Shown here: one piece after another, positions 13,602-44,284 of the stretch
Position numbering within the stretch: the first letter of the stretch is position 1
Layout: every line of letters starts with the position of its first letter
Assembly: GCA_947624135.1 (NCBI GenBank)
Contig: CANQIV010000003.1
Location: forward strand, 1-44,422
DNA length: 44,422 nt
Origin: an uncultured Bacilli bacterium
GTDB taxonomy: Bacteria; Bacillota_I; Bacilli_A; RF39; UBA660
Direction of reading: 5' to 3'
The notes under the pieces: model-generated
What the model saw: only the letters and a program-made list of their open reading frames with translations
What the model was told of the DNA's origin: nothing
Database searches by the model: none
Program-made: the position numbers and the translations under genes

Positions 13602-15420
13602 ATGAAAGAGATAAAACAAACAAATATGAGTAGGGGGGGGGGTACTTTACACTAGAAAAGTAAAGGCATTCACCCTAATAGAACTTTTAGCTGTAATAGT
13701 AATATTAGCTATAATAGCAGTCATAGCTACTCCAATAATATTAGGAGTAATAAATGATTCAAAATATAAAGCATTTAAAATAAGTTTAAACAATATAGAA
13801 CACGCATATGAACTTTATGCTGCTCAAAATAATATTGAACCCGGAACAGAAATAGATATAAGTAAATTACCTCTTGATTCTAAAAATCTAAAAGGTAAAG
13901 TATTCTTAAATGAAGAAGGTAAAGTAGAATTAAAAGAGGTAACCGATGGGACATATAGTGCGGAAGGAACACTAGATGATTTAAGCATGCTTAAAGGAAC
14001 AGTAGAAGATTTGTCAGCAAATCGTTTAGATGTAGAAGCAACTCTAAGTTTAAAATCAAATAGTATAATAGTAACAGTAGAAACAAAAGAAGGATACCCA
14101 ACAAGTTATAGTTATCAAATAACAGGACCAGATGACTATAAAAAGGAAGCAAATAACTTAAAAGAAAGTAAATATACATTTGATAAATTAAATTTAAATA
14201 CAGAATATAGTATAAAAGTAACAGTAAAAAATAAAGCTAATTTAACAAAAGAAATAACAAAGACAATAAAAACAGAATTGGTGTTAGAACCAGAATTAGG
14301 AAATTTAATACCAGTAGTATATAAAAATAATAACTGGGTAGTAGTAGATACAACAAAAGATAAATGGTATGATTATGAAAATCAAGAATGGGCTAATGCA
14401 GTAATATTAAATGACGGGATAAATAAAATAGCAGGACAAGAATTAAATTTAGAAACAGATGTAAGAGCAATGTTTGTATGGATACCAAGATATGAATATA
14501 AAATAGAAGGACCATATGGAAAAGGTGGAGTAAGTGCAGAAAGTCCAGGAGAAATAGAGGTAAACTTTATATCAAAAGATGTTGTATATGAAAATACAAA
14601 TAATAGTGGATATAGAGTACACCCAGCATTTACATTTGACTCTCAAGAATTATCAGGAATATGGGTAGGAAAATTCGAAACAAGTCATACAACATTATCG
14701 TCATTAATAAGTAACAATCTAGGATGTAGTAATAATAATTGTGCTAATGCAGATGGACTTAGAATATTACCAAATGTAGAATCATTAAGATATAATAATA
14801 TATCAAATTCATTTTATGCAGCACAGTCAATGGATAATAGATTAAATATACCTGGGGATTTACACATGATGAAGAATAGTGAATGGGGAGTAGTAGCATA
14901 TCTATCACAAAGTAAATATGGAATAAATAAAGAAATTGCAGTAAACGATAGTAGTAGTTATCTAACAGGTGGAGGAGATTATGTAACAAATGTAGCCCAA
15001 TCAACAACAGAAAATATAACTGGGATATATGATATGAGTGGAGGTTCATATGAGATGGTGATGGCATATTATGAACCAGCATACCAAACAAATCCAGATT
15101 TAAATTTACAATGGGGTTCAAATGAATCTACGAATTGGGCAGAATTCACACAAAAAATAGATTCCAAATATTACGATAGTTATACAAGTACTACTCCAGA
15201 AGAAGCATGCGGTGGAGAGATATGTTATGGACATGCAATTTCAGAAACAACAGGATGGTATAGTGACTATATGCATTTTTGGTCTTCCACAAATCCATGG
15301 ATTGATCGTGGCGGTGGAAACTCTAACAATGTTTTTACTGGAATATTTGCGAGTGGTTTTAACTTTGGTGAAGAGCGAAGCTTTAATTCATTCCGTATAG
15401 TATTAACTCCAGTTGCATAA
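13602..15420 (+). CDS. Type IV prepilin-like surface protein, copy 2, frameshifted at a G10 tract (predicted phase-OFF); FGE-like CLec C-terminal domain
   Basis: ATG 13602 reads MKEIKQTNMSRGGGTLH*. Removing one G joins the leader to AFTLIELL... and the 13987..15420 ORF, giving 605 aa. Confidence 0.8.
13633..13642 (+). repeat. Poly-G tract G10 (out of frame)
   Basis: AGTA-G10-TACTTTAC. Confidence 0.9.
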
Positions 15421-15764
15421 GCAAAAAACTTTTTTATTTAATAAATTAAGATATTTTTAAAGAGAATATAACTATTAAAAAAATATTTAAAATTTTTAAT
15501 AAAATTACAGTTTTTAAATATTTTAACAAAAAAATAAATAATAATATAAAAAAATAATTACAGAAACTAAATTTCTGTAATTTTAATATAACAAAAACAA
15601 AAATGTCATGCTTTGACATATCTAATTTAATATGGTATAAAAATTAAATAAATTAATTATTATATTTTCAATGACAATTAATTGTAAATATAAAGTAAAA
15701 ATATTCTTTTTATTTAAAAATAATGTTATAATATTAGTATGAATTATAGATGGAGCTGAAAGGT

Positions 15765-17963
15765 ATGACAAAGAAGAAAAAAAGAAAAGATGAGAATAAG
15801 GAACAAAGTGGATATGTGGTAGAACTTAAAGGAATATTCCTTTTGCTTGTAGCAATCATAGGTTTATGTCCTTTTGGTATAGTAGCCAATTTTATAAAAG
15901 GATTTTCATGCTTTTTATTTGGAACACTATGGGCAGTATTTTTAGTTTTTATAGGCGTAATAGGTTGCTATATAATAGTAAAAAGAAAATATCCTAAAAT
16001 ATTAACAGGTAAAACAGTAGGAATTTTTGTCATATTAGTAGGTATACTTACACTTTTACATATAAGTTATATTAATAATGAACAATTAAAAATTGATCCT
16101 AATAATTTTAAATTTATTGATGATTCTATAAAAGTAATTAAAGAAACTACAGATAATGTAATGAAAAGTATAAAAGACAGTGTATGGTGTGTTGAAACAG
16201 GTGGAGGAATAATTGGTGCGATATTTATAAGTCTATTTACTACACTTTTAACACTCAATGGTACTAAATTTATTTGTATTGCTTTAATAATATGTGGTTT
16301 AATAATTTATACAGGAGTATCATTATACGAGGTATTAAAAAATACTGGAGATAAGGTTAAAAATGTAGCAAATAAAGTTCATATTAACAAAGAAAAACAT
16401 ACTAAAGAACCAGATAAAGAAGAAAAAGAAGAAATAAAAGAGGTTATAGAAGACTTACCAGTAGAAGAAAAATCTGCACTCATAATGACACATAATGATG
16501 AAGGTGAGGTAATAAATAAAAAATATGTTTTCCCACCTCTCTCTCTTTTAAATAAATCAACAAAATCAGATGGTAAAGAAAATGATCTTGCAATAAAAAA
16601 TAATATTCCAATACTTATACAAGTTTTAAAAGATTTTGGTATTGAAGCTCATGTTGTAGATACCCATGTAGGCCCTGCAGTAACACAGTATGAACTTGAA
16701 ATAAAAGCTGGAACTAAAGTAAGTAAAATACTTAGTTTAAATAGGGAAATTGCTTTAGCTCTTGCAGCAAAAGATGTACGTATTCAAGCTCCTATTCCAG
16801 GTAAAAATACTATAGGTATAGAACTTCCTAATAAAAATATATCTATGGTATCTGTTCGCGAGGTATTAACTAGTGTACCTGCATCAAAATCAAATTCAAA
16901 ATTACTTGCTGTATTAGGTAGAGATATTATGGGTAATCCACAATGGATGGAAATAAATAAAACTCCACACCTTTTAGTAGCAGGTTCAACTGGTAGTGGT
17001 AAATCAGTATGTATAAATAGTATATTAGCATCTATTCTCATGCGTAGTAAACCAGATGAGGTAAAGTTAGTACTTGTGGATCCTAAAAAAGTAGAACTTT
17101 CAATATATAATGGTATTCCACATTTACTTGCTCCAGTTGTAACAGATCCAAAACGTGCGAATATTGCTTTAAAAAGAATTGTCTCAGAAATGGAAAGACG
17201 TTATGATGTCTTTGAGGACAGTAAAACTAAAAATATTGAAAGTTATAATGCTTATATAGATAAAAAGAATGAAGGACTTCCAGATAGTGAAAAAGAAAAA
17301 CATATGCCATTTATAGTAGTAATAATAGATGAACTTGCAGATTTGATGTTAGTTGCTGCAAAAGAGGTAGAAGATTCTATTATGCGTATAACACAGATGG
17401 CTCGTGCAGCTGGAATACATTTGATAGTAGCAACACAAAGACCATCTACAGATGTAATTACAGGAGTTGTTAAAGCAAATATTCCATCGCGTATATCTTT
17501 TGCTGTATCGAGTGGTATAGACTCAAGAACTATACTTGATATGACAGGCGCTGAAAAATTACTTGGAAAAGGTGATATGTTATTTTTACCACAAGGAACT
17601 AATTCACCTTTACGTATACAAGGAACTTTTATTTCAGAAGAAGAAACTAAAGCACTCGTAGATTTTGTATGTGCACAACAAAAAGCTCATTATGATGAAA
17701 CACTTACAATGGATGAAGAAGAAAAAGGTGCGACAACTATGACAGAAAATAAAGATGATTATGAAGAACCTTTATATAATGAAATAGTAGAATTTGTAAT
17801 TAGTCAAGGAAAGGCTAGCGCATCACTCCTTCAAAGAAGATTTCGTCTAGGATATAATAGGGCTGCAAGATGTATAGATTTACTTGAAGAAAGAGGAATT
17901 GTTGGACCTCCTAATGGAGCAAAACCTCGTGAGGTTTTAGCTAAAAATGAAGATCAAGAATAA
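15765..17963 (+). CDS. ftsK: DNA translocase FtsK/SpoIIIE
   Basis: N-terminal TM helices, HLLVAGSTGSGKS, IIDELADLM, LIVATQRPS, gamma domain LLQRRFRLGYNRAAR; start 15750 or 15765. Confidence 0.96.
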   Translation: MTKKKKRKDENKEQSGYVVELKGIFLLLVAIIGLCPFGIVANFIKGFSCFLFGTLWAVFLVFIGVIGCYIIVKRKYPKILTGKTVGIFVILVGILTLLHISYINNEQLKIDPNNFKFIDDSIKVIKETTDNVMKSIKDSVWCVETGGGIIGAIFISLFTTLLTLNGTKFICIALIICGLIIYTGVSLYEVLKNTGDKVKNVANKVHINKEKHTKEPDKEEKEEIKEVIEDLPVEEKSALIMTHNDEGEVINKKYVFPPLSLLNKSTKSDGKENDLAIKNNIPILIQVLKDFGIEAHVVDTHVGPAVTQYELEIKAGTKVSKILSLNREIALALAAKDVRIQAPIPGKNTIGIELPNKNISMVSVREVLTSVPASKSNSKLLAVLGRDIMGNPQWMEINKTPHLLVAGSTGSGKSVCINSILASILMRSKPDEVKLVLVDPKKVELSIYNGIPHLLAPVVTDPKRANIALKRIVSEMERRYDVFEDSKTKNIESYNAYIDKKNEGLPDSEKEKHMPFIVVIIDELADLMLVAAKEVEDSIMRITQMARAAGIHLIVATQRPSTDVITGVVKANIPSRISFAVSSGIDSRTILDMTGAEKLLGKGDMLFLPQGTNSPLRIQGTFISEEETKALVDFVCAQQKAHYDETLTMDEEEKGATTMTENKDDYEEPLYNEIVEFVISQGKASASLLQRRFRLGYNRAARCIDLLEERGIVGPPNGAKPREVLAKNEDQE

Positions 17964-18014
17964 TATTCGACAAAATAAAACTGCTTATTAAGTTACAATA
18001 AAAATGGTGATAAT

Positions 18015-18473
18015 ATGAAGAAGTATATGGTTACATTTTTAAGTGCTTTAATAATCGGTTTTTTTCTTGCTAATTTTTTTATAAAACAATATAAAAATAA
18101 TACAGGTATAAAAGTGGCTTTAAATAATGAAGAATTATATTTTATTCAATATGGAGTTTTTTCTAGTAAAGAAAGTATGGAAGAAAATACATTAGAATTA
18201 CAAAACTATGTATATAATATAGAAGACGATTTATATTATGTATATGTTGGAATAACTAAAGATAGTTCTATAGCAGATAAAATAGTAGATTATTATAAAA
18301 AATTAAATTATGAAACAATTATAAAAGAATTTAATATTCAAAATAAAGAATATTTAACATTACTAGATAATTATGATAAAGTTTTAAAAGATACAAATGA
18401 TGATACTGTTATTGCTTCCATTTTAAATCAAGCATTAATGAAATATGAGGAGGTAGTAATAAATGGGAGTTAA
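18015..18473 (+). CDS. Membrane-anchored protein with SPOR-like motif (SpoIIB-like position upstream of radC)
   Basis: N-terminal TM; YFIQYGVFSS motif. Confidence 0.6.
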   Translation: MKKYMVTFLSALIIGFFLANFFIKQYKNNTGIKVALNNEELYFIQYGVFSSKESMEENTLELQNYVYNIEDDLYYVYVGITKDSSIADKIVDYYKKLNYETIIKEFNIQNKEYLTLLDNYDKVLKDTNDDTVIASILNQALMKYEEVVINGS

Positions 18474-19152
18474 AATTAAAGATATACCTATTAGTGATAG
18501 ACCATGTGAAAGATTGATAGAGCACGGTGCAGAAGCACTAAGTAATGAAGAATTAATTGCTATAATATTTAAAACAGGCTTGAGAGGTACATCTGCAAAA
18601 GATTTAGCAACCTTTCTTTTAAGTGAAGTTGGAAATATAAAAAAAATGAATGATATAAATTATGAATATTTAAAAAAAATAAAAGGTATTGGACAAAGTA
18701 AAGCTTGTAATTTATTAGCTGCTATAGAACTTGGTAAAAGAATAAATAGAGAAATAGATACTATAAAAAATGTAAAATTAAACAATACAGGATTAGTGTA
18801 TAAATTTTATAAAGATAAATTAGGAGATAAAAAGCAGGAGCACTTTTATGCAGTATACCTTGATAATCAAAAGAAGATAATAGGAGATAAATTGCTTTTT
18901 ATAGGTACTATTAATTATAGTTTAGTTCATCCACGTGAAGTTTTTAAGGAAGCTTATTTACTTGGTGCATCTTCAATAATATGCGTACATAATCACCCAA
19001 GTGGTAATCCAATTCCAAGTAAACAAGATTTTGATGTAACAAACACTTTAATATCAGTAGGTAAAATATTAGGTATAAAAGTATTAGATCACATAATAAT
19101 ATGTAAAAATAATTACTATAGTTTTTTGGAAAATAATGATATAGCCTTTTAA
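18463..19152 (+). CDS. radC: RadC family (JAB domain) protein
   Basis: LSNEELIAI, IKGIG HhH, VHPREVF, HNHPSG, LDHIII. Confidence 0.95.
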   Translation: MGVKIKDIPISDRPCERLIEHGAEALSNEELIAIIFKTGLRGTSAKDLATFLLSEVGNIKKMNDINYEYLKKIKGIGQSKACNLLAAIELGKRINREIDTIKNVKLNNTGLVYKFYKDKLGDKKQEHFYAVYLDNQKKIIGDKLLFIGTINYSLVHPREVFKEAYLLGASSIICVHNHPSGNPIPSKQDFDVTNTLISVGKILGIKVLDHIIICKNNYYSFLENNDIAF

Positions 19153-19190
19153 AAAAAAATAATATATATTATAATAAAGTTGGTGATATA

Positions 19191-20042
19191 ATGAAACAGA
19201 AAAATAAAAATAAAAAATATATAATTTTTCTTATAATAGTTCTTCTTTTAACACTGCTAGGTGTAACAGCGCATAATATAAACAAAGAAAAAGATTTAAA
19301 TTTTTTTGAAAAAGCACTTACAGATACTACTACATTTATAGAAAAAATTTTTAATACACCTATAGAATACATAAAGAAAAAAGTAAAAGAAACAAAAGAA
19401 ACTAAAAAAATGTATAAAGAATATGATAAATTAAAAAAGCAAGTAGAAAAAACAGAACTTTATTATAGTCAAATAAAAGAGCTTCAAAAAGAGGTAACAG
19501 ATTTAAAATCTACATTAGAACTTAATTCTACATTATCTGAATATACATATATAAATGCAACAGTTGTAAATAGAAATATAGGTTATTGGTATAATTCACT
19601 AAAGATAGATAAAGGTAGTAAAAATGGAGTAAAAAAAGGTGATGCTGTAATAAATCCAGATGGTTTAATAGGAAAAATAACAAATGTAAGCAACTTTTCA
19701 TCTTCAGTAAAATTACTTACTACAGATGAGTTAAGTAATAAAATATCAGTTAAAATAGAAATAGACGATAATGAATATTTGTATGGATTATTAATCGGAT
19801 ATGATAAAGAAAAAAAAGTATATAAAATAGAAGGAATTACAGATTCAAATTCAGTTGATTTAGATGATATTGTAACTACGACAGGACTTACAGATTATTT
19901 TCCAAGTGGAATCCTTATAGGAAAAGTATCTAAAGTGGTAAAAGATGAATATGATTTAAATAGTATAATAGAGGTTAAACCTACAGTTAATTTTGAAAAT
20001 ATAAGTATAGTAACTATTTTAAATAGAGAGGCTAGTGAATAA
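19191..20042 (+). CDS. mreC: Rod shape-determining protein MreC
   Basis: TM plus coiled coil, IDKGSKNGVKKG, GLIGKI, TTGL..FPSGILIG. Confidence 0.92.
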   Translation: MKQKNKNKKYIIFLIIVLLLTLLGVTAHNINKEKDLNFFEKALTDTTTFIEKIFNTPIEYIKKKVKETKETKKMYKEYDKLKKQVEKTELYYSQIKELQKEVTDLKSTLELNSTLSEYTYINATVVNRNIGYWYNSLKIDKGSKNGVKKGDAVINPDGLIGKITNVSNFSSSVKLLTTDELSNKISVKIEIDDNEYLYGLLIGYDKEKKVYKIEGITDSNSVDLDDIVTTTGLTDYFPSGILIGKVSKVVKDEYDLNSIIEVKPTVNFENISIVTILNREASE

Positions 20043-20524
20043 TGGTATATATTATTATAATATTTTCCATTTTATTTGAATCAGCAATTTCAAATGTAGT
20101 TAATTTATATTCATTATTTTTTCCACTTTTTTTGATAACTAGTTTGTCTATTCTTTATCCATACTTTAAAGGTAAAACACAAAAATTTATAATAACTTGT
20201 ACTATATGTGGTTTTATTTATGATTTAGTTTTTACTCATTCATTATTTGTAAATACGATAAGTTTTAGTTTGATTTCTTTATTTATAATGCTTTGTTACA
20301 ATTATATAAATTATAATATAGTAAGTTCGGGATTTATAAACATAATAACTATTACAATTTATCAAACTATTCATTATTTTTTGTTATGTATTTTAGATTA
20401 TTTAAAATTTAATGAAATTAATTTACTTAAATGCATACTATCATCTATTATTTTAAATTTAATATATGGAATTATAATTTATCTATTTATGAAATTAGTA
20501 TATAATAAAATAAAAAAAGATTAA
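20042..20524 (+). CDS. mreD: Rod shape-determining protein MreD
   Basis: Hydrophobic 160 aa, GFIYDLVF motif, overlaps the mreC stop. Confidence 0.8.
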   Translation: MVYIIIIFSILFESAISNVVNLYSLFFPLFLITSLSILYPYFKGKTQKFIITCTICGFIYDLVFTHSLFVNTISFSLISLFIMLCYNYINYNIVSSGFINIITITIYQTIHYFLLCILDYLKFNEINLLKCILSSIILNLIYGIIIYLFMKLVYNKIKKD

Positions 20525-20566
20525 AAACTTGCAGAAATTAAAAAACTGCATTTTTTATGTGCAGAA

Positions 20567-20588
20567 TTTACGTACAAATATTCGTAAA
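20567..20588. promoter_or_regulatory. Putative LexA (SOS) box upstream of recA
   Basis: CGTAC-AAAT-ATTCG (2 mismatches to Firmicute CGAAC-N4-GTTCG) within a TTTACG...CGTAAA inverted repeat, just upstream of the -35. Confidence 0.5.
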
Positions 20589-20593
20589 AAGTA

Positions 20594-20622
20594 TTGACAA
20601 ACTATTTTTTGTTTAGTATAAT
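20594..20622 (+). promoter_or_regulatory. recA promoter
   Basis: Perfect TTGACA-17bp-TATAAT. Confidence 0.85.
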
Positions 20623-20650
20623 ATATATGTAAATTGAAGGAGGAAATTAA

Positions 20651-21712
20651 ATGTTAAAGTCAACATCAACTGATAAAACATTGGATAAAGTCTTATCAGA
20701 TATAGAAAAACAATTTGGTAAAGGTGCAGTAATGAAACTTGGTGAAAGAGAACATCAAAAAATAGATACTATATCTAGTGGTTCTATTTCTCTTGATATT
20801 GCACTCGGTATAGGTGGATATCCTAAAGGAAGAATTATAGAAATATTTGGGCCAGAATCAAGTGGTAAAACTACTTTCGCGCTTCATGCTATAGCAGAGG
20901 CACAAAAAAATGGTGGTAGGGCAGCATTTATAGATGCAGAACACGCATTAGATCCTGTTTATGCATCTAAACTTGGTGTAAATATAAATGAATTGTTATT
21001 ATCACAACCTGATAATGGAGAGCAAGCACTTGAAATATGTGAAGCTCTTGTTAGAAGCGGTGCGATTAGTATAATTGTAATAGATTCAGTAGCCGCTTTA
21101 GTACCACAAGCTGAAATAGAAGGTGAAATGGGTGATTCACATGTAGGTCTTCAAGCTAGACTTATGTCTCAAGCTTTAAGAAAATTATCTGGAATTGTAA
21201 ATAAAACTAATACTGTAGTAATATTTATAAATCAATTACGTGAAAAAGTAGGTGTTATGTTTGGAAATCCAGAGGTAACACCGGGAGGTAGAGCGCTTAA
21301 ATTTTATTCATCTATACGTCTTGAGGTTAGAAAAGGTGAACAGATTAAGCAAGGTACTAGTTCAATAGGAAATAGAACAAATATTAAAGTTGTAAAAAAT
21401 AAAATGGCTCCACCTTTTAAGAGTTGTTCAGTAGATATTATATATGGAGAAGGAGTTTCACTTAATGGAGAAATAGTAGATTTAGGTGTAGAATCTAAAG
21501 TATTAGAAAAAAGTGGTGCTTGGTATTCATATAATGGTGAAAAAATTGGTCAAGGTAAAGAAAATGTTAAGGATTGGTTAAAGAAAAATCCAAAACAAAA
21601 AGAAGAAATCGAAAAGAAGGTAAGAAATTATTTTGATAATAATGATTCTCTTCAAATAGGAAATATTGAACAAGAAGATGATTCATTAGATTTCTTGGAT
21701 GAAAGTGAATAA
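20651..21712 (+). CDS. recA: Recombinase A
   Basis: [39 protein letters not shown]. Confidence 0.99.
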
Positions 21713-21715
21713 TTT

Positions 21716-21738
21716 AAAACGACTATTTAGTCGTTTTT
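21716..21738 (+). terminator. recA terminator
   Basis: AAAACGACT-ATTT-AGTCGTTTT. Confidence 0.7.
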
Positions 21739-21838
21739 ATTGTATTAATTAAAAATTTCTGTTTTTTCTTGATTTATTTTTATCAATCAATTATAATTAA
21801 TATAGAGTGTGAAACACTTAAAGAAATGGAGGAATAGT

Positions 21839-23392
21839 ATGCCAAATATTATAATCTCCATTTTGCTAGTCCTAATTGGACTTATTGTTGGAATAGTCGT
21901 AATGTTTATAGTTAATCTTATTAGAAAAAATTCTGCAACAGATAATGCTGATAAGATTTTAGAAAATGCTCGAAATGAAGCAGAAAAGATAAAAAAAGAT
22001 TCTATTTTAGAAGCAAAAGAAGAAATAAATGAATTAAAAATAAAATCTGATGAAGAAATAAAAGAAAAAAAAGCAGAAATTAAGGAATCTGAAAATAGAC
22101 TCCTCAATCGTGAAGAAAGTATAGATAGAAGAGATCAAAATCTTCAAAAGAGAGAAAGTTCATTAGATGAAAAAGAGCAAGAATTACTAAATAAACAAAA
22201 AGATATTCAAGAACAAGAAGCAAATTTGGAGAAAATTAAAGAACAAGAAGAAAAAAAATTAGAAGAAATAAGTGGCTATACAAAAGATAAAGCAAAAGAA
22301 CTGGTTATGAAAAATGTTGAAGATGCTATGACTATTGAGATAGCTTCATACATCAAAGAAAAAGAAGCAGAAGCAAAATTAGAGGTAGATAAAAAATCTA
22401 AAACTATGCTTGTTGAAAGTATGCAAAAATATGCTAGTGATGTAGTAGAAGAGCAAACTGTTACTGTAGTAGATTTACCAAATGATGAAATGAAAGGTAG
22501 AATAATTGGTAGAGAAGGTAGAAATATAAGAACAATAGAGTCAGTAACTGGAGTAGACTTGATAATTGATGATACACCTGAAGCAATAGTTTTATCTTCT
22601 TTTGACCCTTTAAGAAGGGAAATTGCTCGTATTACTATAGAAACATTAATTAAAGATGGAAGAATTCATCCATCAAGAATAGAAGAAATATACGATAAAA
22701 CTTGTAAAGAGATGAAAGAAAAAATAATGGAATATGGTCAAAATGCATTATTTGAACTAGGAATTACAAAAGTAGAACCAGAATTAATAGAATTAATTGG
22801 TAAGTTAAATTTTAGAACTAGTTATGGTCAAAATGCACTTAGACATTCCATTGAAGTAGCTCAATTAACAGGAATAATGGCTGGTGAGATAGGTGAAAAT
22901 GTACCGCTTGCTAAAAGAGCTGGATTACTTCATGATATTGGTAAAGCTATAGATCATGAGGTAGAAGGAAGCCATGTAGAAATAGGTTCTAATATAGCTA
23001 AAAAATATAAAGAAAATGATGTAGTAATAAATGCAATAGAATCTCATCATGGAGATGTAGAAGCAAACAATATAATTTCATCACTTGTCGCAATTGCTGA
23101 TACCCTTTCAGCATCCCGTCCAGGAGCAAGAAATGATTCACTTGAAAATTATATTCAAAGACTTCAAGCACTCGAGTCTATTGCGAACGATCAAAAAGGT
23201 GTAGATACAGCATTCGCAGTTCAAGCAGGTAGAGAAATTAGAGTAATAGTAAAACCAGAAGAAATAAGCGATATTGAAAGTCATAAAGTTGCTCGTGATA
23301 TTAAAAATCGTATAGAAGAAGAGTTACAATATCCGGGAACAATAAAAGTTACAGTAGTTAGAGAAACTAGAGCAATAGAAGAAGCAAAATAA
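21839..23392 (+). CDS. rny: Ribonuclease Y
   Basis: N-terminal TM, coiled coil, KH ([13 protein letters not shown]), HD (LLHDIGK); GGAGGA RBS before ATG 21839; follows recA. Confidence 0.97.
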
Positions 23393-23418
23393 CTTCTTCT
23401 TTAATTTTAAAAAAATAC

Positions 23419-23515
23419 TTGTAAATATGTTTAAAATGTGGTAGAATTAATAACGTGATCCGCTGATTATGTTTAATATTTGTAAATTATGATCATAAAT
23501 TAAATAAAGGAGAGT
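23419..23515 (+). promoter_or_regulatory. rplS promoter and possible L19 leader
   Basis: TTGTAA-17-TAGAAT, then a leader containing TCCGCTG, reminiscent of Firmicute L19 leaders. Confidence 0.45.
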
Positions 23516-23521
23516 GACATT

Positions 23522-23875: not shown

Positions 23876-23893
23876 GGCTTTAGCCTTATTTTT
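23872..23893 (+). terminator. rplS terminator
   Basis: ATAAGGC-TTTA-GCCTTAT plus T-run. Confidence 0.6.
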
Positions 23894-35140: not shown

Positions 35141-35193
35141 GTAAAAATACTTAGTATTGTGATATAATCATTTATGTAGTTTAGGAGGAAAAT

Positions 35194-35889: not shown

Positions 35890-35890
35890 A

Positions 35891-36475
35891 ATGGATTATA
35901 AAGATTTTAACGATTATGAACTTATGAGTTATATAGCTGAAGGAAATGAAGATGCTAATAACATATTAATAAAAAAATATGAGCCATTAATAACAACCAT
36001 AGCAGGTAAGATGTTACCACTCTGTAAAAATAATGGACTTGATATAAATGATTTAGTTCAAGAAGGTATGATAGGTTTAAATCATGCTATAGATAGATAT
36101 CATGAACAAGGAGATACACTATTTTATACATATGCTAAAAAATGTATAGAAAGAAAAATAATAAGTGTTGTAGTTGGTTCAAGAAGAAATAAAAATAAAA
36201 TATTAAACGAATCAGTTTCTTACGATGATGATGAAAATTCCTTAATAAAAATATTAAAAGATTCATCACCAAATCCAGAAGAAATATTATTAGATATGGA
36301 ATATCAAGAAGATTTTTTAGCTAAAATAAAAAATAAACTTACAGATTTTGAATCACAAGTTTTTGAACTTTTAGTATCAGGATTTAAATATAAAGAAATA
36401 GCAGTTTTACTTGAAAAAGATGAAAAATCTATAGATAACGCTATTCAAAGAATTAAAAATAAACTAAAAAAATGA
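35891..36475 (+). CDS. sigH: RNA polymerase sigma-H-like factor
   Basis: DLVQEGMIGL, YKEIA, KSIDNAIQRIK; follows rlmB. Confidence 0.85.
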   Translation: MDYKDFNDYELMSYIAEGNEDANNILIKKYEPLITTIAGKMLPLCKNNGLDINDLVQEGMIGLNHAIDRYHEQGDTLFYTYAKKCIERKIISVVVGSRRNKNKILNESVSYDDDENSLIKILKDSSPNPEEILLDMEYQEDFLAKIKNKLTDFESQVFELLVSGFKYKEIAVLLEKDEKSIDNAIQRIKNKLKK

Positions 36476-36479
36476 TGGA

Positions 36480-36698
36480 TTATTTAAAATGTAATCCATC
36501 ATTTCCGTATTCTTTATATTTATTTACCCATCTTCTAACTGTAGAAGGATATGTATTATAATATCTAGCAGCTGGTTTATTTCCATATTTTAATGCATAC
36601 ATAACCATATCATAAAGAATTTTTTCTTTGTCTTTCTTACTTTTACTTGCATATAATTCGTTTTTTTCAACATCATATAACTTAAATTCAGTAGACAT
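36480..36698 (-). CDS. Small helix-turn-helix protein (transposase-N-terminus-like)
   Basis: GGAGG RBS before ATG 36698; GNKPAARYYNTYPSTVRRWVNKY. Confidence 0.7.
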   Translation of the reverse strand: MSTEFKLYDVEKNELYASKSKKDKEKILYDMVMYALKYGNKPAARYYNTYPSTVRRWVNKYKEYGNDGLHFK

Positions 36699-36818
36699 AA
36701 ATAACCTCCTTTTTATTATTTTCTCGTTCTTCAAAAAAAAATAATGCAAAGTAACAAGTAATTTAATTAAAATATGGAAAAAAAATTACAAACATAGTAT
36801 AATTATTGTGGTGATAAT

Positions 36819-37778
36819 ATGGATATTGAAAATCTTAATATAGAAAGAAAATTAAGAATAGTATTTATGGGAACTCCTGATTTTAGCGTTCCTGTGCTTG
36901 ATTCATTAATAAAAAATTATGGCGTTAAAGCAGTAGTAACACAGCCAGATAAAATAGTAGGTAGAACAGGTAAAATAGCTAAACCTCCTATAAAAATATT
37001 AGCAGAACAAAATAATATTTTAGTAATACAACCTGACAAAATAAAAGAACATGTAGAAGAAATAATTAGTCTTGATCCAGATATAATAATAACATGTGCA
37101 TATGGTCAAATACTTCCAAAAGAACTTTTAGATTATCCAAAATATGGCTGCATAAATGTGCATGCATCTCTTCTTCCTAAACTTAGAGGTGGAGCTCCAA
37201 TACATAGAGCAATAATAAATGGATATAGTAAAACAGGAGTTACAATAATGTTTATGGCGCCAGGTATGGATGATGGAGATATAATTACACAAAAAGAGAT
37301 AATAATAGAAGATACAGATACAGCAAGTACTTTACATGATAAATTAAGTAAATTAGGTAGTGAACTTTTAATTGAAACATTACCTAGTATATTTAATAGA
37401 ACAATAATTAGAACACCTCAAGACTCATCCAAAGCTACATTCGCTCCATGTATAAAACCAGAAGATGAAAAATTAGATTTTAGTAAAACTACAATTCAAA
37501 TATATAATCAAATAAGAGGACTTAATAGTTTTCCTGGAGCATATTTTATGTTAGATGGAAAAAGAATTAAAGTATGGGAATCAATTATAACAAATGACTA
37601 TGATTCTTCAAAATTAAATGGAGAAATAGTAAAAATTTATAAAGAAGGAATCGGCGTAAAAACAAGTAATGGTATAATAATTTTAACAAATATTCAACCA
37701 GAAGGTAAATCAAAAATGCAAGCACTTGATTATGTAAATGGTCTACATGAAACTATAATAGGTAAGATAATAGGTTAA
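36819..37778 (+). CDS. fmt: Methionyl-tRNA formyltransferase
   Basis: IVFMGTPDFS, VVTQPD, INVHASLLPKLRGGAPI, MDDGDI. Confidence 0.97.
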   Translation: MDIENLNIERKLRIVFMGTPDFSVPVLDSLIKNYGVKAVVTQPDKIVGRTGKIAKPPIKILAEQNNILVIQPDKIKEHVEEIISLDPDIIITCAYGQILPKELLDYPKYGCINVHASLLPKLRGGAPIHRAIINGYSKTGVTIMFMAPGMDDGDIITQKEIIIEDTDTASTLHDKLSKLGSELLIETLPSIFNRTIIRTPQDSSKATFAPCIKPEDEKLDFSKTTIQIYNQIRGLNSFPGAYFMLDGKRIKVWESIITNDYDSSKLNGEIVKIYKEGIGVKTSNGIIILTNIQPEGKSKMQALDYVNGLHETIIGKIIG

Positions 37779-37779
37779 T

Positions 37780-38436
37780 ATGAATTTTATAAAAAAAATA
37801 AGAGAAAATTTAAAAGATTCTAAAAAGAAATCTTTAACTCTTTTAGGAATATATTTTATATTTTTTATTGTAGTTTTTGCTCTTTTTAATTCAGCTCCTC
37901 AAAATGAACCAATAGAAAATATAGAAGATATAGAAGAAAAAGAAGATGTAGTAACCAGTTATGAATACACATATAATATAAGTGATATAAATAATTCTAT
38001 TGAAATAAAAGGAACACATAAAGATACAAAAGATTTATTTACATATAATGGATTAAAATATTATAAAGAAAATAATATATTATATATATATCAAAATAAT
38101 GAGTTAAATGAAATTTCTTATTTAGATATTGATATTGATAATTTTAATTACAATAACATAATAAAAATAATAGATTCAAGTACATTTGTAGATGAAACAT
38201 CATATAGTGATAATAGTAGTAAAATAAATTACTCAATAAATATAGATGATTATTTATCAATATTAAATATCGATAAGACTAATTTAGAAATAAATATACC
38301 TATAACAGTTTCAAAAAGTGATTATATAGATGAAATACAAATAGATTTAACTAATTATTATAAATATAAATCTATTATAACAATAAAATATGACAATATA
38401 AATAAAATTGACGATATAAAAGTAGGTACTAGTTAG
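37780..38436 (+). CDS. Hypothetical membrane-anchored protein
   Basis: N-terminal TM; coupled to fmt. Confidence 0.7.
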   Translation: MNFIKKIRENLKDSKKKSLTLLGIYFIFFIVVFALFNSAPQNEPIENIEDIEEKEDVVTSYEYTYNISDINNSIEIKGTHKDTKDLFTYNGLKYYKENNILYIYQNNELNEISYLDIDIDNFNYNNIIKIIDSSTFVDETSYSDNSSKINYSINIDDYLSILNIDKTNLEINIPITVSKSDYIDEIQIDLTNYYKYKSIITIKYDNINKIDDIKVGTS

Positions 38437-38439
38437 TAT

Positions 38440-39324
38440 CTACTTATTATTTATTATTTTATTCAATATATTTAAAGCAATATTTAAAGTTTTATTATCT
38501 TTATCAAAATTAGGATTAAATTCAACTAAATCAAAGGATTTAATATTATCAATATTATTAACTAAAATATCTGCAATTTTATATGCTGTTATATCATCAA
38601 TACCATTAATTTCTGGTACAGAAACACCGGGTGCAAATTCAGGGTTAATTACGTCTAAATCATAGCTTATATGCATACCAAGAGTATCTTTCATTGCAAT
38701 ATCAATAGCTCGTTTCATAATACTTTCAATACCAAATTTCATAATATCTTCATCACTAAAAACAGTAACGCCCATTTTTTTAATATTATTTAACTCTTGT
38801 TTCTTATTTTTTTCCATAGATCTATACCCAATAACAACTGTATTTTTAGGATTATAATAAGTACCATCAAAAAAGAAAGTCAAAATAGGACAAATACCAT
38901 TTAAAGATGCAAGAGGAAGACCATGTAAATTACCTGTTATAGTAGTTTCAAATGTATTATAATCTAAATGAGCATCAATCCATATAATACCTAAATTTTT
39001 ATTTATTTTTTTACTTGCTAAAGCACTCCCAATTGAAATACTATGGTCCCCACCAATAGTAATTGGAAAAATATTATTATCAATAGTATCTTTAACAACT
39101 CTATATAATCTTTCATTAAAATCATTTACAGCATTTAAATTCTTTTTTAAATCTTCTTTATCCTTACTTTTTATACAATTTGTTTTTTCTATTTCAATAA
39201 TTTTTTCAATAGAATAATTTTTTAAATTTTTAATAATTACTTTAGGCCCTTTATTTGAACCATCAACGTCAACACCTAAATCACTTTCCGCACAAATTAT
39301 ATTCTTTTTCAATTTAATCACCAT
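38440..39324 (-). CDS. rocF: Arginase (ureohydrolase family)
   Basis: GGDHSIS, WIDAHLD, GNLHGLP, SYDLDVINP..APG, VEFNP; alternative TTG start at 39312. Confidence 0.88.
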   Translation of the reverse strand: MVIKLKKNIICAESDLGVDVDGSNKGPKVIIKNLKNYSIEKIIEIEKTNCIKSKDKEDLKKNLNAVNDFNERLYRVVKDTIDNNIFPITIGGDHSISIGSALASKKINKNLGIIWIDAHLDYNTFETTITGNLHGLPLASLNGICPILTFFFDGTYYNPKNTVVIGYRSMEKNKKQELNNIKKMGVTVFSDEDIMKFGIESIMKRAIDIAMKDTLGMHISYDLDVINPEFAPGVSVPEINGIDDITAYKIADILVNNIDNIKSFDLVEFNPNFDKDNKTLNIALNILNKIINNK

Positions 39325-39432
39325 ATTAATATCATAAAATTATTGTTATTTAATGTCAAGAAATATTTAAAAATTAAGCAAATATTGTGTAAAATTTGTT
39401 ATAATTGTTATATAATTAAATAGAGGTGAAAT

Positions 39433-40875
39433 ATGAAAAAACTAAATGAGTTAATAGATACAAAAATAGATGTAGAAATAAAAGGTATTAAGACTAATTC
39501 TAAAGAAATAGAAAAAAATGATTTATTTATATGTACTGATAGAGGTACTTTAGATAGACATCAGTTTATAGACGATGCGATAGAAAAAGGTGCGAGTGCT
39601 GTTATAGTTAAAAAAGATGTAGGCAAGAAAAAAGTACCAATAATTAAAGTAGAAAATCCAAATGATATATTACCTATAATTTGTTCTAAATTTTATGATG
39701 AGCCAGAAAAAAAACTTACTATGATTGGTGTTACAGGAACAGATGGAAAAACAAGTGTATCAACTATGATTCAAACATTGCTTGGTAGTGATGTTTGTGG
39801 ATATATAGGTACTAATGGATATAGTTGTTCAAAATTTAATAAAGATACAAATAATACAACACCAGATTCAGATAAATTGTATGGGTATTTCGATGAGTTT
39901 ATTAAAAATGGTTGTAAATATTGTTCAATGGAAGTATGTAGTGAAGCACTTATGCTTGGAAGGGTAGAAAATATAGAGTATGATATTTCAATACATACAA
40001 ATATAACTAGCGAACACCTAAATTCACATGGTTCACTTGAAAATTACGTAAAAGATAAATGTAAATTATTTAAACAAACTAAAAAAAATGGTTATTGTAT
40101 ATTAAATAAAGATGATGAACATTTTAATGAGGTAAAAGAAGCATCAAATGGTATAGTTTTAACATATGGAAAAGATAGTGATAATGATTTATATTTTAAA
40201 GATATAAAAATATTACCTGGAAAAACATTATTTAAAATAAATTATAAAAATAAAGAATATGAAATAGATAGTCCTATGGCAGGAATGTTTAATGTATATA
40301 ATTTATCAGCAGCTTTACTTACACTTTTTACTTTAGGATTTACCTTTGATGACATAAAATCAAAAATATCTAAATTACATGTAAGTGGAAGACTTGAAAT
40401 GATAGATATGGGACAAAATTTTTATGCAATGGTTGATTATGCTCATACTCCAAATGGAATAACAAAATTACTTGAATATGTAAAAGAACTTCCTATAAGA
40501 AAAAGTATAGTCGTAATAGGTCAAGCAGGAGATAGAGATAAATCTAAAAGAAAAACAGTTGGAGAGGTTGTTGTAAAAAATTGTGATCATGCTATATTTA
40601 CATACGAAGATCCAAGAAGCGAGGATCCAAAAGATATAATCGAAATGATTATTGAAAATATAAAGGATACACATGATAATTATGAAATAGTAATAGATAG
40701 GAGTAAAGCAATAAAAAAAGCTATAGATATTGCAAAAGAAAAGGATATAGTTTTAGTTTTAGGTAAAGGTAATGAGACGTATCAAAAACTAAAAGATAAA
40801 GTTATATATTTTAATGATATAGAAGAGGTTAAAAAATCTATACAAGAAAGATTAAATAGAGTTAATACTAAATGA
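39433..40875 (+). CDS. murE: UDP-N-acetylmuramoyl-dipeptide amino-acid ligase MurE
   Basis: GVTGTDGKTS, TTPD, EHL..H, GRLE, VDYAHTP, LGKG.E. Confidence 0.92.
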   Translation: MKKLNELIDTKIDVEIKGIKTNSKEIEKNDLFICTDRGTLDRHQFIDDAIEKGASAVIVKKDVGKKKVPIIKVENPNDILPIICSKFYDEPEKKLTMIGVTGTDGKTSVSTMIQTLLGSDVCGYIGTNGYSCSKFNKDTNNTTPDSDKLYGYFDEFIKNGCKYCSMEVCSEALMLGRVENIEYDISIHTNITSEHLNSHGSLENYVKDKCKLFKQTKKNGYCILNKDDEHFNEVKEASNGIVLTYGKDSDNDLYFKDIKILPGKTLFKINYKNKEYEIDSPMAGMFNVYNLSAALLTLFTLGFTFDDIKSKISKLHVSGRLEMIDMGQNFYAMVDYAHTPNGITKLLEYVKELPIRKSIVVIGQAGDRDKSKRKTVGEVVVKNCDHAIFTYEDPRSEDPKDIIEMIIENIKDTHDNYEIVIDRSKAIKKAIDIAKEKDIVLVLGKGNETYQKLKDKVIYFNDIEEVKKSIQERLNRVNTK

Positions 40876-40898
40876 AGCAAGTAGATTGCTTTTTTTTT
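40876..40898 (+). terminator. murE terminator
   Basis: AAGCAA-GTAGA-TTGCTT plus T-run. Confidence 0.6.
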
Positions 40899-40911
40899 GA
40901 CAAAATTATAC

Positions 40912-40995
40912 TTGTAAAAATTTATATTAAGTGATATTATTAGTATAGATAGAAGAGTAATAAAAAGCTTCTATTAGAGTGAAAGGAAGGAAAAT
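40912..40995 (+). promoter_or_regulatory. Repeated pilin-family promoter/leader module (copy 3)
   Basis: TTGTAA-17-TATTAT, ATAGAAG/CTTCTAT stem, GAAAGGA. Confidence 0.8.
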
Positions 40996-42374
40996 ATGAA
41001 AGAGAAAAAACAAATAAATATGAGTAGGGGGGGGTACTTTACACTAGAAAAGTAAAGGCATTCACCCTAATAGAACTTTTAGCTGTAATAGTAATATTAG
41101 CTATAATAGCAGTCATAGCTACTCCAATAATACTAGGAGTAATAAATGATTCAAAGTATAAAGCATTTAAAATAAGTTTAAACAATATAGAACACGCATA
41201 CGAATTATATGCAACTCAACATAATATTGAACCTGGAACAGAAATAGATATAAGTAAATTACCTCTAGATTCTAAAAATCTAAAAGGTAAAGTATTCTTA
41301 AATACAGATGGAAAAGTAGAATTAAAAGAAGTAACCGATGGAACATATAGTGCGGAAGGGACACTAGATGATTTAAGCATGCTTAAAGGAACAGTAGAAG
41401 ATTTACTAGCGAATAGATTAGATGTAGATATGAAATTAACATCAACACAAAATAGTATATCAATAGAAATAGAAACAAAAGAAGGAGTACCAACAAATTA
41501 TAGTTATGAAATAACAGGACCAAATGACTATAGTAATAAAGTAAATAATATAACAGAAAATACACATACATTTGATAAATTACAATCTGATACAGAATAT
41601 AGTATAAAGGCAACAGTAAATAATAAAGCGGGATTGATAAAAGAGTTAACAAAAGCAATAAAAACAGAACAATTAAAAGGCCCAACTATAGAAATGGCAT
41701 CAGATAGTGATACATATATAGCTGCAATATATTTGGACCCAACAAATATAGAAAGATATTGTGATTCTAGTAATATTAGCAGTACGGCAGGTGTTACAGA
41801 AGGATGTATGAAATGGTATGCATATAAAGAAACAGATGATACATACACAATGTTACTTGACCATAATATAACAAAATTTGATGATGATAATATAATAAAA
41901 TGGACTACAAAAGATACAAATGAATTAGGACCAGAAGAAGCATTAAGAGTATTAAAAGAAACGACAGATTCATGGATAGCTATACCTGAAAGAAATGATA
42001 GTTATACTCCAACATTAGGTGACAATATTTCTTCTTCTAAATATACAATAAATTATACCGGATATAGATCAAGACTTATTGAAGCGGAAGAGGTAGCTAA
42101 AATTATTTCTGCTGATTTATCTTCATTAACAATAGAGCAAGTTGTTAGTTTTCAAATCGACAATATAAAATATCAATGGCTTATAGGAAGTGGAGATGGG
42201 ATTGGATTTAGATATTGGACATCTTCACCTGTAAAAACTAGAAAAGCTATTTATATTGCTGGCCATTTAAATGAAGCAGCAATTGATGCATCATCGTTTA
42301 GTAGTAGCAGTAGTTCAAAAAACATTGGAATAAGACCAGTAATAACAATTCCAAAATCAATGATTAATAATTAA
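40996..42374 (+). CDS. Type IV prepilin-like surface protein, copy 3, frameshifted at a G8 tract (predicted phase-OFF); different C-terminal domain (YWTSSP...GIRPVI)
   Basis: ATG 40996 reads MKEKKQINMSRGGYFTLEK*. Adding one G joins the leader to AFTLIELL... and the 41379..42374 ORF, giving 459 aa. Confidence 0.8.
41027..41034 (+). repeat. Poly-G tract G8 (out of frame)
   Basis: AGTA-G8-TACTTTAC. Confidence 0.9.
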
Positions 42375-42388
42375 TTATATAAACTATA

Positions 42389-42416
42389 GAAAGTAGACAA
42401 ATCTACTTTTTCTTTT
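42389..42416 (+). terminator. Intrinsic terminator
   Basis: AAAAGTAGA-CAAA-TCTACTTTT. Confidence 0.65.
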
Positions 42417-42426
42417 ACAGTTATAC

Positions 42427-42511
42427 TTGTAAAAATTTATATTAAGTGATATTATTAGTATAGATAGAAGAGTAAAAATAAAACTTCTATTAGAGTGAAA
42501 GGAATGGAATT
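42427..42511 (+). promoter_or_regulatory. Repeated pilin-family promoter/leader module (copy 4)
   Basis: TTGTAA-17-TATTAT, ATAGAAG/CTTCTAT stem, GAAAGGA. Confidence 0.8.
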
Positions 42512-44284
42512 ATGAAAGAGAAAAAACAAACAAATATGAGTAGGGGGGGGGTACTTTACACAAGTAAAGTAAAGGCATTCACCCTAATAGAACTTTTAGC
42601 TGTAATAGTAATATTAGCTATAATAGCGGTAATAGCTACTCCAATAATACTAGGAGTAATAAACGATTCAAAATATAAAGCATTTAAAATAAGCTTAAAC
42701 AATGTAGAACATGCATATGAACTTTATTCAGTACAGAAAAATATTAAACCAGGTACAGAGATAAATATTGAAGATTTACCTCTAGATTCAAAGAATCTAA
42801 AAGGAAAAGTATTCTTAAATGGAGATGGAAAAATAGAACTAAAAGAGGTAACCGATGGAACATATAGTGCGGAAGGAACACTAGATGATTTAAGTGTGCT
42901 TAAAGGAACAGTAGAAGATTTATTAGAAAATAGATTAGATGTTAAGGTAAACGTAAATACTAATGCAAGGAGTCTAGTAGTAACAGTAGAAACAATAGAA
43001 GGAGTACCAACAAGTTATAGTTATCAAATATTAGAGCCAGAAGAGTATAAAAAAGAAGCAAATAATTTAAAAGAAAACACATATACCTTTGATAAATTAA
43101 AAACAGATACAGAATATAGTATAAAAGTAATAGTAAAAAATAAAGCAGGATTAACAAAAGAGATAACAAAGACAGTAAGAATCGAAAAAATAGATGATAT
43201 AAAATTAGAATTAAATCCAAAAGATGAATATATAAAAGAAGGAACAGTAACAATCACATATCCAAAACTTGATAATGTTAGATATAAATATAGGTGGGAT
43301 AGTGAAGATTTTGTTGAAGCAGATATAAGTATAGATGGAGATAAAGTGACAACAACAACACCAGCAAAAAATGGAACACTTACAGCTGTATTAATGGATG
43401 GAGAAGAGACAATAATATCAAAACAAATAACAATAACTAATATAGATAATATGGCTCCGGTAATAGAAAAAATAGAAGGAAATGATAATGTACAATCAAA
43501 TAGAAAAATAATAAAAATAACAGCTAGTGATTCAGGTGTAGGAGAAATAAAATATTCATGTGATGATGGAACAACATGGCAAGATAAAAATGAATGTATA
43601 TATAATCAAAATGGAACACAAAAAATAAAAGTAAAAGATAGTTTAGAAAATATAAGTGAAAGTAATGAAATAAATATAACAACTATAGCTAGTGAAGAAA
43701 CTTTTACAATAAATAATTTATTTCCTGATGGATCTTTTGAAACAGAAAATTCAAATGATTTAGTAATAGAAGGTGACAGCGTAAAAAAAATAGAATTTGA
43801 CACATCCAATTATATATCAGGAAGCAAAAGTTTAAAACTTACACCAATCATAGTTTCAACTAATCAATGGGGAAGCGGAGTTAGTATAAAAATTACTAAC
43901 ATTAAAGAAGGACATGTATATTATGCTTCAGCATATTGCAAATCTAGCGCTAAATGTGGAATTCTTGCATATACGTCTGACTGGAATAATGGTGGAATAT
44001 ATTGGGCAGGTGAAAAAAATTCATCATCAGCATGGGTAAGGTTATCTTTGTATGCTTATTCAAAAGTTAATAAAGATTTTGTAAGCTTTAGATTAAACAT
44101 TTTACCACCTTTTGATATAAACCTTGATAACGGAAATCCATATTACTTTGATGATATAATACTTGTTGATTTAACAGAAATATTTGGGAAAGGAAACGAA
44201 CCAAATAGCAAGTGGTGCGATGAAAACATAAATTATAATACGACAACGGTAAAAAAATATAATAATAGTGTAGATATTCGTTGA
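42512..44284 (+). CDS. Type IV prepilin-like surface protein, copy 4, in frame (G9); Ig-like domains and a carbohydrate-binding (CBM4/9-like) C-terminal domain
   Basis: MKEKKQTNMSRGGVLYTSKVKA|FTLIELL; NLFPDGSFE...SGSKSLKL...YFDDIIL. Confidence 0.85.
   Translation: MKEKKQTNMSRGGVLYTSKVKAFTLIELLAVIVILAIIAVIATPIILGVINDSKYKAFKISLNNVEHAYELYSVQKNIKPGTEINIEDLPLDSKNLKGKVFLNGDGKIELKEVTDGTYSAEGTLDDLSVLKGTVEDLLENRLDVKVNVNTNARSLVVTVETIEGVPTSYSYQILEPEEYKKEANNLKENTYTFDKLKTDTEYSIKVIVKNKAGLTKEITKTVRIEKIDDIKLELNPKDEYIKEGTVTITYPKLDNVRYKYRWDSEDFVEADISIDGDKVTTTTPAKNGTLTAVLMDGEETIISKQITITNIDNMAPVIEKIEGNDNVQSNRKIIKITASDSGVGEIKYSCDDGTTWQDKNECIYNQNGTQKIKVKDSLENISESNEINITTIASEETFTINNLFPDGSFETENSNDLVIEGDSVKKIEFDTSNYISGSKSLKLTPIIVSTNQWGSGVSIKITNIKEGHVYYASAYCKSSAKCGILAYTSDWNNGGIYWAGEKNSSSAWVRLSLYAYSKVNKDFVSFRLNILPPFDINLDNGNPYYFDDIILVDLTEIFGKGNEPNSKWCDENINYNTTTVKKYNNSVDIR
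42543..42551 (+). repeat. Poly-G tract G9 (in frame)
   Basis: AGTA-G9-TACTTTAC encodes R-G-G-V. Confidence 0.9.

Follow-up and report, generated by a model that had tools for sequence, protein, structure and literature searches.

Guanine tracts in prepilin leaders as likely phase-variation switches of a large modular type IV pilin family in an uncultured gut Bacilli bacterium

The DNA analyzed here (hereafter the window; 44,422 nucleotides) is the entire contig C3 (CANQIV010000003.1) of G000, our label for the genome under study, that of an uncultured gut Bacilli bacterium, and it contains five members of a paralogous family of modular type IV pilin genes, all on the forward strand. Three of them have a run of G within the codons of the prepilin leader, in a shared context, AGTA-(G)n-TACTTTAC, and the length of the run, read directly from the sequence, differs from copy to copy: G10 in copy 2 (13633-13642), G8 in copy 3 (41027-41034), and G9 in copy 4 (42543-42551), where it supplies the leader codons Arg-Gly-Gly. 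Only the G9 copy is in frame (ON), and copy 4 reads from 42512 to 44284 as a protein of 590 amino acids (aa) with a 22-aa leader, a pilin module, an FN3 domain, and variable C-terminal modules. The leader frame of copy 2 in its G10 state (13602-13655) translates from the ATG at 13602 as MKEIKQTNMSRGGGTLH, which is 17 codons followed by TAG at 13653-13655, and that of copy 3 in its G8 state (40996-41055) runs from the ATG at 40996 for 19 codons and ends ...RGGYFTLEK before TAA at 41053-41055; both copies are OFF. The pilin frames 3' of both frameshifts are intact, with 596 codons in copy 2 (13630-15420; N_methyl motif, FN3-like domain, and a weak FGE-sulfatase-like C-terminal region) and 448 codons in copy 3 (41028-42374). 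The tract lengths, their common leader context, and the two intact frames had been reported in a preliminary description of this DNA, and all of them hold.

The reading frame is set by n alone: n = 9 leaves the gene open, n = 8 stops it after 19 codons, and n = 10 stops it after 17. We looked for restart codons and found no in-frame ATG, GTG, or TTG between the tract and FTLIEL, which rules out translation restart after the short OFF peptide. Long G runs had also been said to be otherwise absent from the window, and this was confirmed: overlapping G7 hits number nine vs 0.18 expected, a count that 0 of 100 shuffles reached, and the three leader tracts are the only places in the window where seven or more G follow one another. 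The two outer family members, which had been singled out for inspection, both exist in the window, but their tracts lie beyond its ends. Copy 1 (1-2205, 734 codons) is 5'-truncated, with the contig beginning at its Ala(-1) codon right after the leader, while copy 5 (44330-44422) is present as a promoter-like site, a 5' untranslated region (UTR), and its first three codons (ATG at 44414-44416), and the contig end precedes its tract. Since the contig starts just after the leader of copy 1 and stops three codons into copy 5, so that both of its ends fall inside the leader, the assembly breaks at this repeat.

The G000 assembly (1,240,267 bases in 77 contigs, 24.8% G+C, 94% completeness) comes from a setting indicated by the public runs that contain the window stretch, which are mostly labelled as rabbit gut metagenomes. 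It holds 47 G/C runs of at least 7 bases (2 G7, 6 G8, 6 G9, 33 G10, and none longer), and those of at least 8 number 45, compared to 0.12 expected from base composition. At 43 of the 47 runs we found the module (G)n-TACTTTACA, and 37 of these 43 module runs head paralogous modular type IV pilin genes, with the family leader MKExKQxNMSRGG-VLYTRKVKA↓FTLIELLAVIVILAIIA (arrow, predicted cleavage site). The preliminary description had seen three to five copies, whereas the whole family amounts to about 37 switches. The tract lengths in the pilin family are 30 G10, 3 G8, 3 G9, and 1 G7, the last behind a different leader, and in the assembly consensus 4 copies are ON (window copy 4, C6:31971, C63:4655, and C8:19968) and 33 are OFF. 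Complete copies make up 26 of the 37, and the other 11 run off contig ends; the 26 complete genes total 48.7 kb, and at least 4% of the 1.24-Mb genome is spent on about 37 switchable modular pilins. With its module-bearing genes of other kinds, the phasome of G000 comes to about 43 loci within 1.24 Mb, which looks comparable to the numbers in Campylobacter or Helicobacter.

Upstream DNA was aligned for the 34 module-bearing loci that have enough flank, 30 of them from the pilin family, and four elements are conserved: a promoter-like site (TTGTAA-17-TGnTATTAT), a stem in the 5' UTR, an AAAGGAA ribosome-binding site, and the ATG. In the window, the promoter-like site lies at 13517-13545 for copy 2 (TTGTAA-17-TGnTATTAT, positioned from its homology to copies 3 and 4), at 40912-40940 for copy 3 (TTGTAA-17-TATTAT with TG), and at 42427-42455 for copy 4. 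The 5'-UTR hairpin of copy 4 (42463-42491, ATAGAAG-loop-CTTCTAT) has a 7-bp stem (ATAGAAG/CTTCTAT) that is kept among paralogs at the same upstream place, while the loop varies. RNA folding also gave a stem directly 3' of the tract in copy 4 (42552-42571, TACTTTAC/GTAAAGTA, 8 bp, z = -2.6), which is shortened to 6 bp in most copies. Since the arms of this stem never vary and one of them encodes part of the leader, we draw no conclusion from it. A -1 programmed ribosomal frameshift stimulated by the post-tract hairpin was considered and rejected: G10 needs +1, there is no covariation because the arms are invariant, and the leader of G005, another genome of the genus, shows no evident hairpin of this kind.

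The preliminary description had placed the tract in the leader that prepilin peptidase removes. Our analysis agrees that the tract lies 5' of the predicted cleavage site, and in-frame changes in its length would therefore leave the mature protein unaltered. The N_methyl profile (PF07963) scores 25.8-27.6 bits vs a cut-off of 21.2, with its motif starting at KA↓FTLIEL, and TIGR02532 scores 24.6-25.1 bits vs a cut-off of 16.3 at the FTLIEL motif; F23, T24, L25, I26, and E27 are invariant across 43 aligned sequences. A prepilin peptidase gene is present at C15:6722-7054 (Peptidase_A24, 67.9 bits), together with three T2SSE ATPases above the cut-off on C15, C7, and C2 and with T2SSF platform genes on C15 and C7. 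The type IV pilus genes of G000 fall into two clusters, on C15 and C7.

Structure models of residues 1-225 and 1-138, made from the 43 sequences (mean predicted local distance difference test scores, 85 and 81), consist of an unstructured leader, a 52-residue helix at 25-76, four strands at 97-131, and an FN3 sandwich at 143-224. The FN3 assignment at 143-224 is matched by Pfam (25.2 bits vs a cut-off of 25) and by Foldseek, where the two-domain model returned FN3 matches only (E 2.5e-5). A Foldseek search of the pilin module against the PDB gave no match at E ≤0.001, the best being PilA5 at E 0.26. VIA-align against 48,161 chains placed pilins or pseudopilins in 10 of its top 12 rows, led by Thermus PilA4 (Z 6.1, root mean square deviation 4.1, 111 aligned), with the tool's own note that a Z below 8 is not decisive, and in a PDB sequence search 13 of the 16 hits at E ≤1 are pilin or pseudopilin chains (best E 7.8e-4). 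The 3' part of each gene, beyond FN3, encodes 230-730 further residues that differ between paralogs, and its C-terminal modules gave weak OmpL47-type and FGE-sulfatase-like matches, below cut-off. The family fits the modular type IV pilins of Raynaud et al., with one deviation, Ala for Gly at -1.

Decay of the downstream frames had been named beforehand as a sign that would speak against switching, and no such decay was found, since the OFF frames are open and the ratio of nonsynonymous to synonymous substitution rates (dN/dS) lies below 1 in all pairs compared. All 26 complete copies are open for 445-948 aa with no internal stop, and the 22 complete OFF copies among them (22/22) are open for 445-799 aa; as estimated from base composition, a random frame at 25% G+C would close after about 11 codons. 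We computed dN/dS by the Nei-Gojobori method for the 63 paralog pairs, most of them OFF-OFF, whose alignment spans at least 80% of the C-terminal part with an identity of at least 55%. The first 215 codons gave ratios of 0.15-0.53 and the codons after them 0.33-0.91, and the ratio was below 1 in 63/63 pairs.

Tracts of this kind are also found in relatives. Of the 27 genomes of the genus, 17 have G runs of at least 8, reaching up to G19, in two contexts: between TTGACA and a -10-like box, and in prepilin leaders. A run of at least 8 within about 35 nucleotides 5' of FTLIE codons is present in 6 of the 27 genomes (35 such leader tracts in G000, 12 in G023, 11 in G005, and one each in G003, G014, and G015), and a reversed-pattern control gave 0. 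The tract flanks differ species by species, while the position of the tract is kept in five other species. The exact module (G)n-TACTTTACA was found in 1 of the 40 other genomes searched, which indicates that the flanks are nearly species-specific, though the tract position is not. G005 (about 20 contigs) has a family about 45% identical to that of G000. Its 11 leader tracts comprise 6 G10, 4 G11, and 1 G15; 10 of the 11 are out of frame, in both wrong frames, and only G15 is in frame, while the open frames are all intact (454-619 aa). At the level of sequence, the pattern of most copies out of frame and all intact recurs in this independent and much better assembled genome.

Other G runs in the genus lie in different surroundings. 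Two further G005 copies are ambiguous in state, with a possible second start 3' of the tract. At L093-L095 in G005 and at L029 in G009, the G run lies 5' of a second possible start (MNRKRKNMKKGFTLIEL) and adjoins a TATAAT-like box, and the tract at these loci may act on transcription, not on the reading frame. In other species of the genus, runs of G9-G13 lie between TTGACA and a -10-like box (L019, L020, L022, L024, and L026) and are candidate promoter-spacer switches.

The tract lengths were also followed in public sequencing runs. All 15 runs listed are available as Logan contigs and 0/15 are RNA; four of them, from three studies, were aligned over window positions 40300-44300. In 4/4 of these runs, both G and GG are found inserted at 41026 and a single G at 42542, so that G8, G9, and G10 leader forms coexist in each. 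No form longer than G10 is listed, and such contigs drop rare variants. Since Logan contigs are built by another pipeline, neither the mix of lengths nor the lack of listed forms beyond G10 comes from the assembler used for G000. Depth over the tract is 60-450 vs 5-9 for single-copy sequence, so these contigs are pieces common to paralogs, with lengths that are not assignable to a locus. On the tract-length distribution proposed as a check in the preliminary description, they show coexisting lengths, pooled over loci.

Frame states in other assemblies were judged from public gene calls. These start OFF copies at an internal Met (MLKGTVEDL...), without PF07963: copy 2 is called as P0030, 477 aa from an internal ATG (13987-15420), copy 3 as P0130, a fragment of 331 aa (41379-42374), and 20 of the 24 public protein matches in the copy 2 family search lack PF07963. 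Since the public calls leave most copies N-terminally truncated and without the pilin motif, the family and its secretion route are invisible in standard annotation. The locus G000:C39:11433 (G10, OFF) is called as 536 aa in G000, while two other assemblies have it in frame and 600 aa long, in the alleles P0009 (98.0% over 586 aa) and P0119 (96.4%, and the same leader MKELKQVNMS); the next-best G000 paralog is only 68-70% identical, so the orthology of these alleles is clear. For G000:C26:4405 (G10, OFF), two alleles at 91%, P0003 and P0118, are in frame. Copy 4 of the window (G9, ON) clusters at 90% with P0002 (94.2% over 462 aa), whose call, on a contig of 1,974 bases, starts at the internal Met typical of OFF copies. 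The comparison of orthologous loci suggested earlier therefore turned up three, copy 4 included, that differ in frame state between assemblies. A search for relatives of copy 4 among genome contigs confirmed none, and a scan of JGI metagenome contigs for the leader plus tract gave 0 matches.

These data bear on whether the length differences are real. All loci could in truth be G9, or of one fixed length, with G8 and G10 arising as homopolymer or repeat-collapse errors of assembly. Such errors would be in keeping with a 77-contig assembly that breaks repeatedly at the leader, with tract flanks so nearly identical among paralogs that de Bruijn graphs merge them, with the excess depth over the tract, and with a hard G10 maximum that looks unnatural. 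However, G10 is the majority form (33/47), no rare error, and contigs from another pipeline hold G8, G9, and G10 at substantial depth in four runs from three studies. The 20 of 24 public family hits called without PF07963 make out-of-frame states the rule in other assemblies as well, and in G005 both wrong frames occur among the 10/11 tracts that are out of frame. G000 also contains a T14 run, which indicates that homopolymers are not generally capped in this assembly. We regard an assembly artefact as a very improbable source of the length differences.

The public alleles are mosaic. P0002, P0005, and P0006 begin with an identical first part but have unlike C-terminal parts, and P0005 in turn has its C-terminal part in common with P0003, the middles of these two being different, a pattern of sequence that suggests recombination between paralogs. 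It raises the possibility that most OFF copies mainly donate sequence to a few expressed loci, like Neisseria pilS, and the N-terminal 213 aa, 73-92% identical among about 40 copies, would offer ample homology for gene conversion. Unlike pilS, however, every copy examined keeps a promoter-like site, ribosome-binding site, start codon, and leader (the 30 pilin rows of the 34 aligned), the length of the tract is the sole defect, and loci that are OFF in G000 are ON in other assemblies. A role limited mainly to that of a silent archive therefore has very little probability in our view, and such a role can coexist with phase variation.

The near-universal G10 could also be leaky. RNA polymerase slippage, or +1 ribosomal slippage on AGG-GGG-GGG-G, could each supply the one-base correction, and the tract would then set a low level of expression instead of serving as a heritable switch. 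For long A/T homopolymers, slippage during transcription is established. The purifying selection on OFF copies would be expected of genes expressed in this way, and the run resembles a Shine-Dalgarno sequence, with AGG presumably a rare codon at 25% GC. On the other hand, in-frame lengths (G9, G15, and G11) and both kinds of out-of-frame length occur here and in relatives, which a programmed shift in one direction would not tolerate, and orthologues differ in DNA length between assemblies. A frameshift of -1 would restore the frame in G8 but not in G10. Leaky expression from a fixed G10 thus seems unlikely, if less so than the two alternatives above.

We consider slipped-strand phase variation, as the preliminary description had proposed, to be the likely explanation of the tracts: the frame logic, the intact OFF copies, the coexisting lengths, the state differences between orthologs, and the kept tract position all support homopolymer slippage as an ON/OFF switch. 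Several findings weigh against it. The ON copies (4/37) fall below the one third expected without selection (binomial P = 0.0016, indicative only since the loci are not independent), and the spread of lengths is odd for a free random walk, with 33/47 runs exactly G10 and none longer while relatives reach G19. The Logan tract lengths are pooled across paralogs, none of them anchored to a locus or taken at read level, and the per-locus lengths in the assembly are open to graph collapse; the leader is where a number of contigs, that of the window among them, break off. For copies 2 and 3, a search of other assemblies gave no allele of at least 90%, a level that only the window's own truncated calls reach, so that for these two the proposed ortholog comparison came up empty. 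The Gly usual at -1 of the cleavage site is replaced by Ala in the G000 family (KVKA↓FTLIEL), while related families of G005, G003, G014, and G023 have Gly there; Strom and Lory reportedly found that Ala at -1 is partly tolerated by prepilin peptidase. Lastly, Campylobacter is not known to have MutS and MutL, whereas in G000 both are present and uninterrupted, and the high slippage rate of repair-deficient Campylobacter therefore cannot be assumed. Their intactness also rules out loss of mismatch repair as a source of instability.

Under slipped-strand phase variation, the three window tracts would belong to a set of contingency switches that extends over the whole genome. Each of about 37 genes has its own promoter-like site, 5' UTR, ribosome-binding site, and 22-codon leader, with the G run as codons 11-13, and encodes a protein in which a pilin head and an FN3 domain precede a C-terminal module that varies. 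Slippage on the replicating strand would add or remove one G. By the sequence, only n = 0 mod 3 (G9) connects the start codon to the pilin, and G10 or G8 terminates translation after 17-19 codons. We infer this slippage, its rate, and its reversibility from the patterns described above. Each cell would likely display a small and changing subset of alternative pilus modules. The prepilin peptidase would process these modules, and one of the two type IV pilus gene sets would serve to assemble them. The same switch may extend beyond pilins, as the module also heads surface-glycan acylation genes and those of three large membrane proteins.

Among these other genes, an Acyl_transf_3 gene (95 bits) that shares part of the leader has a G10 tract and is out of frame (C15:24732-24741). 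A DHHW/AlgX-like gene is present in two copies with in-frame G8 tracts 73 codons in (C22:18029-18036 and 20807-20814), and its G007 orthologue carries G9. A membrane protein of 900 aa with no Pfam match is present in three copies (C29:14369-14378, C24:76-84, and C75:2861-2870), one of them out of frame and two in frame, one of the latter being cut by a contig end. A genome from outside the genus has ten places (L129-L132, L136-L138, L140, and L141) where TACTTTACA comes right after G9 or G10, and the module there, where the sequence allows, precedes a membrane-protein family of about 530 aa (YFTNRKVII...). The nine bases after the run read as Tyr-Phe-Thr in the non-pilin genes and, one frame over, as (Val)-Leu-Tyr-Thr in most pilin copies, which indicates that the motif is shared as DNA and not as peptide. 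We offer it only tentatively that the leader, the G run, and TACTTTACA may form a portable cassette that has been copied onto unrelated genes, and that the G10 bias may keep the set OFF by default, with the loss of one base turning on one of about 40 pilus tip modules. If true, this would amount to the display of a repertoire on the type IV pilus of a reduced-genome commensal, functionally parallel to the variable lipoproteins of mycoplasmas.

Phase variation through G runs is textbook knowledge for a few pathogens. To our knowledge, it is hardly documented in uncultured gut Bacilli commensals, and our search of the literature, supplementary files aside, found no description of pilin families in uncultured Bacilli that are switched by G runs. 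The closest known mechanism is the signal-peptide G tract of Neisseria pilC. According to the relevant passages of PMC5354566, which cites Jonsson et al. 1991, pilC1 and pilC2 of Neisseria gonorrhoeae and N. meningitidis have a G run in the signal-peptide region that switches the genes on and off by frameshift, independently of RecA. The likeness lies in a G run within the signal-peptide-coding region of a pilus-associated adhesin gene and in paralogs, two in Neisseria, with independent states (PMC5354566). However, PilC as described there is no pilin and has a Sec-type signal peptide, while here the tract lies in the class III leader of pilins, and two copies there stand against about 37 here, in a monoderm, reduced-genome, uncultured member of the gut Bacilli.

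The phasomes of Campylobacter jejuni and Helicobacter, as far as the passages of PMC6321876 and PMC2823697 describe them, resemble that of G000 in that a small AT-rich genome holds tens of G/C runs, of 8-10 bases or longer, concentrated in genes for surface structures. Glycan-modifying genes are included in those phasomes, and here the Acyl_transf_3 and DHHW/AlgX-like genes carry the tract. The difference from those passages is that 37/43 tracts here belong to one paralogous family with common flanks. The vlhA family of Mycoplasma gallisepticum comprises tens of genes and takes up several percent of the genome. As outlined in passages of PMC6258824, this species is likewise a reduced-genome member of the Bacilli/Mollicutes, and its paralogous vlhA surface genes, which resemble the G000 family in their working at the population level, each have their own repeat switch and are mostly silent at any time. 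The vlhA products, however, are lipoproteins, and the switch of their genes is a GAA trinucleotide repeat that lies 5' of the promoter and acts on transcription, whereas the G000 family consists of type IV pilins with a homopolymer switch in the leader that would act on translation.

The protein architecture has its own precedent. Raynaud et al. 2021, in the passages of PMC8179133 that bear on this, counted more than 1,200 modular pilins in 264 architectures, each a class III pilin module with grafted functional modules. PilB and PilC of Streptococcus sanguinis are alike in having a small pilin module that carries extra modules (PMC8179133), and the pilin module studied here matches the S. sanguinis minor pilin PilA in VIA-align (Z 5.7). 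The leader of PilB has 7 aa, compared to 22 aa with Ala at -1 here, and those passages of PMC8179133 mention neither phase variation nor a large paralogous expansion. The mechanism is ordinary; what is new is the scale, with about 37 switched modular pilins and 43 loci in 1.24 Mb, and the host lineage and setting, and the shared cassette is also unusual. Together, these features suggest that one of the main strategies by which this lineage lives in the gut is to display, stochastically, alternative adhesive or enzymatic modules on its pili.

Two further observations concern the surroundings of the family. Large open frames lie 3' of copy 1 in the window at 1922-4543, 4556-6034, and 6790-8268 (873, 492, and 492 aa), with no Pfam match at the curated cut-off. 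Elsewhere in G000, G7-G9 runs outside the module, at C6:16947-16953, C30:1560-1567, and C52:5753-5761, lie 3-7 bases 5' of the ATG of unrelated genes and resemble a long Shine-Dalgarno sequence.

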